64,000 nt of DNA from Escherichia phage vB_EcoM_G4498: the sequence record NC_054918.1, one strand, 5' to 3'. Position 1 is the first letter of the stretch. Every line of letters begins with the position of its first letter. Of this stretch, positions 62,042 through 64,000 are shown piece by piece. The translations under genes and the position numbers were made by a program. The notes under the pieces were generated by a model. That model was not told where the DNA came from and did not search any database. It was given only the letters and a program-made list of their open reading frames with translations.

Positions 62042-62371
62042 TCAATTAGAAAATAAATTTATCCAGGATTGTTCTTTAATTAAAAATGGCTCAGAATCAT
62101 ATGCCATTAAACTTTGGGTAATTAACCCTTTAAAAGGTCCATCAATAAATTCCATGGTAAAATATGGAATTTTATTCATTAGCCGTGCATTAGGAGCAGT
62201 ACATAAAACTCTGCATCCTTTGAATACACCTTTTTGTAATTTGTATTGCTTGGGATAAAATTCGCTCAAAATGTTATTATTTGCTAAAATTTCAAAATGA
62301 TTCACCAATTTATTTTTAATAGTTTTTGGCGAAAAATAAAGATATTCGAAAAGCTGAGTGTCTGTCATCAT
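62042..62371 (-). CDS. hypothetical protein (vs.7 position), 109 aa
   Basis: ATG at 62369-62371 overlaps the upstream stop (ATGA). Confidence 0.55.
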
Positions 62372-62907
62372 TGCATTCCGATTATGAAAAACTGTGGACG
62401 AGTAATACCACCAATGCAACAGTTAATATTACAGCAGTGGTGTACAGTGTCAATATGGACACTATAAATCTTATCCATATCAGGAGATTTGACAGGCTCA
62501 TCAATTATATATAAAATTCGCGAAAGCGATAAACCTCTGAACTTGCTTCCTTTATTACCAATAAAACTGCGCACAGAATCAGTAAATAAACGAAAACGTA
62601 TATCATCATTAGAATAACGCGAAAATTCCTTTTTAATGTTATTTGCAGAAATTTTAGCGTAAGCTGAAGTATTAGAAAGAACAATAACTGTTCCGCCATC
62701 ATATAACCAATTAGCAGCAAAATTAGTCACAGCAATTGATTTACCGGATTGACGTCCACCATCTATACGAAGTGTGCAATACTGTTTAAGTAAGTCTTCA
62801 AATGGTGGGATATAATCGTTTTTACAAATTTCTTCTACTCTAGCATCAGAATGGTGTGTAAAAGCATTCATCAGGGATAGATAAGGACCAGTTAAAAATG
62901 TTCTCAT
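62368..62907 (-). CDS. P-loop NTPase (vs.8 position), 179 aa
   Basis: Walker A DGGRQSGKS and Walker B ILYIIDEP. Start at MRTFLTGPY (ATG 62905-62907) after AGAGAGAATAAA. Confidence 0.65.
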   Translation of the reverse strand: MRTFLTGPYLSLMNAFTHHSDARVEEICKNDYIPPFEDLLKQYCTLRIDGGRQSGKSIAVTNFAANWLYDGGTVIVLSNTSAYAKISANNIKKEFSRYSNDDIRFRLFTDSVRSFIGNKGSKFRGLSLSRILYIIDEPVKSPDMDKIYSVHIDTVHHCCNINCCIGGITRPQFFIIGMQ

Positions 62908-62940
62908 TTTATTCTCTCTAGGTTTGGGCCATTCCGTGGC

Positions 62941-62975
62941 GCATGAATTGTCCATTTCTGTATTTACCCATTACC
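62941..62975 (-). repeat. 35-nt element following an internal-protein gene (copy 1)
   Basis: gcatgaattgtccatttctgtatttacccattacc. 33/35 identical to 63577-63611. Confidence 0.8.
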
Positions 62976-63048
62976 GCACTTGGGCTCGACCTTATTACAT
63001 GTTGGCGGGAATCCCTCACAAAATCATGAGGTCCAGGTTGTTCCCATG

Positions 63049-63522
63049 TTATTTGAACGATTTAACGTACTGAATAGAACCTTTACTATTCACAAAGGCA
63101 ATTTTACCATTTTTGTTATACATAGTAGCAGTACGTTGATAACCGTAAGTTTGTTTACCAGATTGATAACCAACTAATGCGAAATTATCTTCACCCATTT
63201 TATTCTGTTTAGCGCGAATGCGTTCATGACCATGTGCCATAAGAACCTTAGCATCACCAGTTGCAATGGATCGACGAGTTTTTTCATCTTCAGCTGTATT
63301 AACAAAGTCGTCAAATGAATCAAATTTAGCATGAGATTTATTATACAGTTTTCCATCTACTGCATAATTATATCCTTGTACATCCATCTCAACTTCTGTA
63401 CCATCATCTAATACAGCAGTAATTTTCTGTCCTTTTTTAAATTTCAAAAGATCAGTAAAAGATTCAGCAATAATTTGAGAATTAATAGCTGCCTCAGTAA
63501 TAAATTCTTGATATGTTTTCAT
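63049..63522 (-). CDS. capsid-targeted internal head protein (IP family), 157 aa
   Basis: The N-terminus MKTYQEFITEA is the T4 internal-protein capsid targeting sequence with a prohead-protease site. The body does not match my memory of IPI/II/III. Confidence 0.75.
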   Translation of the reverse strand: MKTYQEFITEAAINSQIIAESFTDLLKFKKGQKITAVLDDGTEVEMDVQGYNYAVDGKLYNKSHAKFDSFDDFVNTAEDEKTRRSIATGDAKVLMAHGHERIRAKQNKMGEDNFALVGYQSGKQTYGYQRTATMYNKNGKIAFVNSKGSIQYVKSFK

Positions 63523-63563
63523 GTATATCCTTTAAATGTAAATAGTTTTATTCTTTAAGTTTT

Positions 63564-63589
63564 GGACAATTCACACGCATGAATTGTCC
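63564..63589 (-). other. perfect 10-bp stem / 6-nt loop hairpin between the two IP genes
   Basis: ggacaattca-cacgca-tgaattgtcc. Confidence 0.7.
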
Positions 63590-63611
63590 GTTTCTATATT
63601 TACCCATTACC
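63577..63611 (-). repeat. 35-nt element following an internal-protein gene (copy 2)
   Basis: gcatgaattgtccgtttctatatttacccattacc. Its low-coordinate end forms one arm of the perfect 10-bp hairpin at 63564-63589. Confidence 0.8.
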
Positions 63612-63630
63612 AGGTTCGAACTCGGCTTTA

Positions 63631-64000
63631 TTAAGAATTACCGCGGGCTGCATTAGCAACGGCGTAAGCGTACTGAACATTAGCGTCTTTAAACGTACCT
63701 TTAGAGGTATCTATTTCTGCCCTAAAGCCGCCTTTAGTCATAACATCGGCAAATTCTTTACGGAAAGCCATTGCATCAAGACTTCTCCATGATGATTTGT
63801 GCTTGGCAAATTCAAGACCTGCGAAGTTGACAGCTTTAGCCAATTTATTATCAATGACCCATTTACCGGCTTTAGGCACAAACTTCGGGCCTTTTTGTTT
63901 AGAGAACAGTTTTAAATTCCAGCGACGAAGGTCACTGTCGGCTTTAACAAAAGCTGCGTCTAAGTTACTAGCAACAACATCTTCAATATGAGCAAATTTA
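63631..64000 (-). CDS. 3-prime part of a gene running off the window end (probable second internal protein)
   Basis: The frame stays open from 63879 to 64000 (...KFAHIEDVVASNLDAAFVKADSDLRRWNLKLFSKQKGPKFVPKAGKW...). The track start is an internal GTG. Followed by the same 35-nt element that follows the IP gene. Confidence 0.6.
   Translation of the reverse strand, partial: KFAHIEDVVASNLDAAFVKADSDLRRWNLKLFSKQKGPKFVPKAGKWVIDNKLAKAVNFAGLEFAKHKSSWRSLDAMAFRKEFADVMTKGGFRAEIDTSKGTFKDANVQYAYAVANAARGNS

Follow-up and report, generated by a model that had tools for sequence, protein, structure and literature searches.

Ip4 of T2-type phages: a conserved internal-protein family and candidate injected anti-defence factor

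What might a T-even internal protein do when the familiar capsid-targeting sequence (CTS) at its N-terminus is joined to a cargo unlike those of T4? This question is raised by an open reading frame near the end of the 64,000-nt stretch of Escherichia phage vB_EcoM_G4498 (NC_054918.1) that was analyzed here and is referred to below as the window. Each T-even internal protein of known target (Ip1, Ip2, Ip3, and Bas37_0260) blocks a modification-dependent nuclease. In the case of T4, Ip1, Ip2, and Ip3 are inhibitors of three different GmrSD type IV nucleases, without cross-protection (PMC12373910), and IPIII, which T4 needs to infect ECOR17, works in trans without its CTS (PMC9391042). The McrBC inhibitor Bas37_0260 is a CTS protein whose gene occupies the ipI locus of phage Bas37 (bioRxiv 10.1101/2025.11.20.689424), and internal proteins can therefore target type IV systems beyond GmrSD.

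The minus-strand reading frame occupies exactly 63049..63522 in the list of open reading frames, with its ATG at 63522-63520 and its stop at 63051-63049, and encodes 157 residues that a preliminary description of this DNA had quoted correctly. The gene and its parts are as follows.

63049..63522, minus strand: ip4 coding sequence, 157 aa plus stop, a member of the Ip4 / DUF7412 / PHROG 3155 family.
63493..63522, minus strand: residues 1-10, MKTYQEFITE, the capsid-targeting sequence with the first I-x-E site, ITE10 (T4 match and motif scan).
63463..63492, minus strand: residues 11-20, AAINSQIIAE, a variable linker ending at IAE20 and presumably removed as well.
63052..63462, minus strand: predicted mature Ip4, residues 21-157, globular and without a close structural relative.
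63292-63294, minus strand: codon 77, a family-variable position.
63528..63533, minus strand: Shine-Dalgarno sequence AAAGGA, 5 nt upstream of the ip4 ATG.

The product matches the Pfam family DUF7412 (PF24183) with an E-value of 3.6e-95 and a score of 316.8 bits against a cut-off of 27, and the alignment is full length (residues 1-157 on profile positions 1-158). It also matches PHROG 3155, annotated as "internal virion protein", at 4e-101. Together with the low dN/dS reported below, these matches place the reading frame far beyond chance. At the level of individual phages, 156 of the 157 residues are identical to Ip4 of T2, RB14, Shfl2, and Yersinia phage fD1; the sole difference is at residue 77, which is alanine here and valine in the other four. 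Ip4 of K3 (UniProt Q38388, "Ip4 [Enterobacteria phage K3]") is 98% identical and is the best structure match in BFVD. The Ip4 annotation is carried by the homologues of RB14, Shfl2, RB51, RB32, and K3, with the RB14 entry (ACP30770.1) bearing the note "similar to T2, RB70 Ip4" and the Shfl2 entry (AEA73081.1) being annotated as Ip4. Essentially the same protein, of equal length and at the same locus between e/ipIII and vs.8, occurs in T2, K3, RB14, RB32, RB51, RB70, and Shfl2. The T-even internal-protein series, which now extends to Ip10, is credited to Repoila et al. (1994, EMBO J 13:4181; PMC12373910). In our view the gene is almost certainly the standard Ip4 gene of T2-type Tequatroviruses, one that is already known and belongs to the internal-protein class.

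The preliminary description had taken the gene for a novel allele. This was mistaken: the product lies one residue from its T2, RB14, Shfl2, and fD1 counterparts, is annotated under the Ip4 name, and is represented in hundreds of phage records (see below). The high identity is to a protein that has a name but no characterized function, so that it is not the refuting observation named in the preliminary description, high identity to an internal protein of known function. Searches of PADLOC and NCBIfam with Ip4 returned no meaningful match. Among open-access main texts, none links the name Ip4 with T4-like phages, GmrSD, or virions, and none deals with DUF7412. Papers describing escape mutants in "internal virion proteins" were set aside, as they concern gp16 or gp13 of T3/T7.

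The N-terminus is the part of Ip4 that most clearly ties it to the T4 proteins. Nine of the ten residues of MKTYQEFITE are identical to MKTYQEFIAE of T4 IPII and IPIII, which bears out the assignment of the gene to the CTS-bearing internal proteins. In T4, cleavage at the I/L-x-E motif follows the glutamate. The preliminary description had correctly recognized both a CTS and a protease site, but it had drawn the cut after A11, whereas the motif leads one to expect it after E10. A motif scan revealed two sites of the (L/I)-x-E type, ITE10 and IAE20. Both glutamates are invariant in 13 close homologues even though residues 11-19 vary, and the position three before E20 is always I, L, or M in these proteins. 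Two of three distant homologues (P0016 and P0017) keep an L-N-E-S site aligned with IAE20. This pattern would be consistent with a second predicted cut after E20, in which case mature Ip4 would start at S21. In the best structural model, the mean pLDDT values of the two ten-residue blocks covering residues 1-20 are 53 and 46, with values of about 50 for residues 1-10 and below 50 for residues 10-18. The model thus fits a leader that is flexible and removable and is joined to one globular domain.

Comparison with the T4 proteins delimits how far the likeness goes. IPII and IPIII, which are inhibitors of GmrSD-ECOR21/BrxU and GmrSD-ECOR17, respectively, have in common with Ip4 a near-identical ten-residue CTS, the translation-initiation leader, the e-vs.8 locus, and a basic character, but past the leader they show no homology to it, and the extra conserved protease-type site at E20 is peculiar to Ip4. 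With IPI/IPI*, the inhibitor of GmrSD-CT596, Ip4 shares an MKT(Y/F).EF leader. The sole I-x-E site of T4 IPI is ITE19, and the loss of about 19 residues from this protein corresponds in position to the second Ip4 site at IAE20. Homology of the cargo to IPI or IPII was considered and rejected, since the similarity detected by hhalign and MAFFT was limited to the N-terminal leader; a single weak internal match to IpIII (probability 64.5) was judged not credible. The claim that the cargo is unrelated to IPI, IPII, and IPIII therefore stands. Bas37_0260 is likewise a CTS protein with a cargo unrelated to Ip1-3. It is encoded at a locus other than that of ip4.

The predicted mature protein has 137 residues, a mass of about 15.5 kDa, and a pI of about 9.3, with 22 lysines and arginines and 17 aspartates and glutamates. 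The AlphaFold model first obtained, from 13 sequences, was of middling quality (pLDDT 76). With the three distant homologues added, the models were consistent and reached a mean pLDDT of 83-86 and a pTM of 0.80, with block means of 82-95 past residue 20 in the best of them. Within the modelled domain, a beta-hairpin (33-54) is followed by three helices (70-103), and the C-terminal part (113-156) forms a sheet of four strands. No convincing match to the best model (pLDDT 86) was found among solved structures. Residues invariant in the wider family are G31, V48, G50, K58, N61, K62, A65, L94, N107, K108, A115, Q120, G122, G127, Y128, and T131. There are no conserved histidines, cysteines, or acidic residues in this wider family and no catalytic-looking constellation; the two histidines of the close members are lost in the distant ones. 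Because none of these residue types is invariant, conservation suggests that Ip4 may be a binding protein rather than an enzyme. The most conserved stretch is residues 41-80 (63283-63402, minus strand), which reads V-x-G-Y-N-Y...G-K-L-Y-N-K-S-x-A-K. These residues match the first double-stranded RNA-binding domain (dsRBD1) of RNA helicase A marginally (E 0.04-0.07 against the PDB). A dsRBD reading was rejected, as Pfam returned no dsrm profile match and the structure model does not show the alpha-beta-beta-beta-alpha fold. Lacking support from either source, the likeness is probably due to chance.

Does the protein reach the virion? The closest available data come from Yersinia phage fD1, whose g129 encodes a protein identical to T2 Ip4. 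This gene product is listed as "Head protein, PPAP" based on LC-MS/MS of virions purified by ultracentrifugation (PMC8309999 Table S3), and its neighbours g125-g128 lack the particle-associated listing (PMC8309999). The fD1 proteome detected 113-137 of 277 gene products, which is about half of them, and the particle-associated list, derived from a non-stringent preparation, also has DenV, lysozyme e, and NudE (PMC8309999). Absence from virions, which the preliminary description had named as a result that would count against it, is contradicted by this listing, albeit weakly given that DenV, lysozyme, and NudE appear in the same list. The fD1 result is consistent with the packaging of Ip4 without proving it. 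Overall, T2-like phages probably pack Ip4 in their heads and inject it along with the DNA.

The genetic surroundings of ip4 are also those of an internal-protein gene. The ip loci of T4-type phages are e-vs.8 and trna.4-57B, and ip4 was always found in the former, 3' of e or ipIII and 5' of vs.8. Its position is fixed in Tequatrovirus, Jiaodavirus, Gelderlandvirus (S16), and Muldoonvirus (SP1), and the lysozyme gene e is its immediate or overlapping neighbour in those phages of Klebsiella, Salmonella, and Serratia that were examined. Among the Tequatroviruses and their relatives, the content of the locus differs from phage to phage:

T4: e-ipIII-ipII-denV-vs.8.
This window: ipIII-ip4-vs.8, with e beyond the window end.
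Shfl2: e-ipIII-ip4-vs.8.
T2 and RB14: e-ip4-vs.8.
fD1: e-denV-ip4-vs.8.
T6: whole block deleted, so that regB adjoins e.

Accordingly, ip4 follows ipIII here, e in T2 and RB14, and denV in fD1; it follows ipIII also in ECML-134 and VEc74. Relative to T4, positions 62368-64000 of the window lack denV and ipII. In T2 the locus holds ip4 only, followed by short apparent remnant reading frames of vs.8, and in T6 the loss spans everything from vs.3 to ipIII. The locus is highly modular. Several elements that flank ip4 bear on how this modularity may have arisen:

63631..64000, minus strand: 3' part of ipIII, encoding the C-terminal 122 aa; the gene passes the window end.
63576..63633, no strand assigned: upstream copy of a 58-nt element, between the ipIII stop and ip4.
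62940..62997, no strand assigned: downstream copy of the 58-nt element, between the ip4 stop and vs.8.
63563-63590: 11-bp hairpin GGACAATTCA-TGCGTG-TGAATTGTCC, between ipIII and ip4.

The part of ipIII within the window is 93% identical to residues 72-193 of T4 IPIII. The two 58-nt copies form a direct repeat (D1) of 81% identity on either side of ip4. The downstream copy is kept 3' of ip4 in T2, RB14, and Shfl2, and the upstream copy is found 3' of ipIII both here and in Shfl2; the repeat has the appearance of a 3' limit to a cassette by which internal-protein genes are exchanged. On the 5' side, an alignment of upstream regions places the ip4 Shine-Dalgarno sequence inside a leader, TATTTACATTTAAAGGA, that is common to T4 ipII. 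In T2 and RB14, ip4 is preceded by the same promoter-and-leader region as T4 ipIII. Because the upstream region is that of ipIII in these phages, and because leader and CTS are shared, the arrangement looks like the product of an exchange of ip cassettes, which may have proceeded by recombination between conserved gene ends.

Expression of ip4 in the window appears to depend on its neighbours. A search of the minus strand of 63523-64000 yielded neither a late promoter (TATAAATA, at most one mismatch) nor a T4-type early promoter (GTTTAC type) upstream of ip4. Since no such promoter lies between ip4 and the window end, the gene is probably co-transcribed with ipIII, and it is presumably read through from the ipIII or e promoters located past the window end. 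The ip4-proximal end of the upstream 58-nt copy forms part of the 11-bp hairpin. The palindromes that T4 has at the corresponding site 5' of ipI, ipII, and ipIII embed promoter-like GTTTAC...TAnnAT sequences, whereas the ip4 hairpin has neither hexamer.

Beyond this locus, the family is large and well conserved. Megablast of the ip4 region retrieved 727 phage records, and tblastn with the mature part retrieved 469, all but two of them (467) essentially full length. The recorded hosts include Escherichia (207), Klebsiella (135), Shigella (45), Salmonella (19), and Yersinia (11), with T2 and many Klebsiella, Salmonella, Shigella, and Yersinia phages among the carriers. Protein identity is 61-99% across phages of Escherichia, Shigella, Klebsiella, Salmonella, Serratia, Yersinia, and Citrobacter. 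The dN/dS ratio is 0-0.03 against T2, RB14, and Shfl2 and about 0.10-0.16 against the Klebsiella and Salmonella phage orthologues, the latter values being read with dS saturated between genera. The gene is functional and under strong purifying selection. An exhaustive profile search covering 1.84 billion representative proteins returned only seven matches. Five were DUF7412 members or fragments, and the other two were a truncated, frameshifted Ip4 (P0019) and a spurious repeat protein. Three of the relatives identified in this way are ~35% identical to Ip4 and have CTS-like N-termini such as MNFEQFLNES; they are absent from the phage collection searched, and we infer that they come from unsequenced T4-like phages. 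The family appears to be confined to T4-like phages.

How might such a protein act? Following expression from the e/ipIII transcription unit, the CTS MKTYQEFITE would direct Ip4 into the core of the assembling prohead, where the gp21 prohead protease would cut off the leader behind E10 and probably cut a second time behind the conserved E20, leaving a basic protein of ~15.5 kDa that forms a single globular unit. Mature Ip4 would then be ejected into the cell along with the DNA. Once there, it would bind and block a host defence that acts early against the incoming modified DNA, the likeliest target being a modification-dependent nuclease outside the GmrSD variants that have already been screened. 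The steps up to ejection are drawn from sequence features, synteny, and one virion proteome, and the last step follows by analogy with Ip1, Ip2, Ip3, and Bas37_0260. By that analogy, the likeliest role of Ip4 is that of an injected anti-defence protein working as outlined, a proposition that we consider evenly balanced.

The preliminary description had put the protein forward as a candidate inhibitor of a nuclease. Anti-restriction is reasonable as a working hypothesis for a protein of this class, but as far as GmrSD enzymes are concerned the available results are negative. Protection against type IV systems, which had been proposed as an experiment, has largely been assayed already: ip4-10 gave no reproducible inhibition of a GmrSD panel (Silas et al. 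2025, PMC12373910 main text and Supp. Fig. 9), for which 15 enterobacterial GmrSD groups were synthesized and five proved to be active against T-even phages beyond the three known systems (PMC12373910). A leader kept on the expressed ip products, whose form the paper leaves unspecified, might have masked activity in this assay. Moreover, T2 and T6 are restricted by GmrSD-ECOR21 and GmrSD-ECOR17 (PMC12373910). The T2 record examined encodes Ip4. Assuming that the T2 stock used by Silas et al. carries ip4, we infer that natively packaged Ip4 does not neutralize GmrSD-ECOR21 or GmrSD-ECOR17, and Ip4 presumably does not share the targets of IPII and IPIII. No similarity in sequence or structure to known inhibitors was found that would support the function. 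A more specific reading makes mature Ip4 (residues 21-157) an injected inhibitor with a new structure, directed against some widespread defence of enterobacteria other than the screened GmrSD variants. We hold this version to be possible, if a little less than evenly balanced. The candidate targets it implies, a modification-dependent nuclease of another class or an early-acting sensor that is not a nuclease, are put forward just as tentatively. A target of this kind, if real, would account for the fact that few residents of the e-vs.8 locus are kept as widely as Ip4, which is found in four Tevenvirinae-type genera.

Other explanations accommodate some of the same observations. Ip4 might be an injected effector directed at a conserved core function of the host or at a non-nuclease defence instead of a type IV enzyme; an abortive-infection sensor or a host nuclease like RecBCD would be examples of its target. 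The identity of 61-99% across seven host genera would fit a target common to the Enterobacteriaceae, the negative GmrSD screen (PMC12373910) points the same way, and none of the known type IV restriction inhibitors is related to Ip4 in fold. High conservation by itself was rejected as an argument against an inhibitor role, and it is not diagnostic for the target, since IpII, whose role as an inhibitor is proven, is 94% identical in T4 and a Klebsiella Jiaodavirus. Set against a core-function effector is the record of the class, in which each of the four CTS proteins of known target is an inhibitor of a modification-dependent nuclease, and the dispensability of ip4 in many Tequatroviruses, T4 and T6 included, for which a strain-variable defence is a better fit. 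We rate an effector of this type as rather unlikely.

A role inside the head must also be weighed. Ip4 could be a DNA-associated protein of the head interior and not an inhibitor of any specific host enzyme, binding the condensed genome and aiding its charge neutralization, packing, or ejection, or shielding the ends of the entering DNA. The basic pI of the mature protein, which resembles IPII and IPIII in this respect, would suit such a role. Part of the fold resembles small barrels of the SH3/Sm/L19 type, many of which bind nucleic acid, and weak Pfam matches to hSH3 and S1/CSD occur in single family members. The invariant Lys/Asn cluster formed by K58, N61, K62, N107, and K108 lies partly in the stretch with weak likeness to RNA helicase A dsRBD1 (E 0.04). 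Strong purifying selection, the fixed position in four genera, and the failure of the ip4-10 screen to find a GmrSD target (PMC12373910) are further points in its favour. However, T4 and T6 lack ip4 at the e-vs.8 locus, and because T6 does without the whole locus as well, Ip4 is not a required structural component. Basic charge is a poor guide in addition, as the equally basic IPII and IPIII are specific nuclease inhibitors (PMC12373910). We consider this proposal unlikely. Least credible of all is that the reading frame is a decaying or non-packaged remnant with a CTS-like leader. Disrupted alleles do exist (P0019, of 39 aa, and P0014), and there is no promoter directly upstream within the window. 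Yet dN/dS is 0-0.03 within the Tequatroviruses and about 0.1-0.16 between genera, the records are essentially full length in 467 of 469 cases, the ribosome-binding site and leader are intact, LC-MS/MS detected peptides in fD1, and the fold is predicted with confidence. A dead remnant is effectively excluded by the data on selection, proteome, and fold.

As a sequence feature, ip4 of this window is ordinary, and the question of the target belongs to the whole Ip4 family, to which the window adds one near-identical copy only. Identifying that target would probably lead to either a new inhibitor fold or one more class of defence against hypermodified DNA, and it would help explain the differences in host range among T2-like, T4-like, and T6-like phages.

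A few unusual members of the family deserve mention. P0019 is a 39-aa product of a frameshifted ip4 copy, P0014 is the ip4 copy of Klebsiella phage AM_K5 with a frameshifted C-terminus, and P0018 is a protein of 100 aa that has only its last 35 residues in common with Ip4. These disrupted or chimeric alleles may be assembly errors or real pseudogenes. One NCBI entry in the P0001 cluster (99% identical) bears the name "DUF7412 family protein [Shigella sonnei]", and Ip4 deposits under bacterial names of this kind presumably stem from phage DNA within bacterial assemblies.
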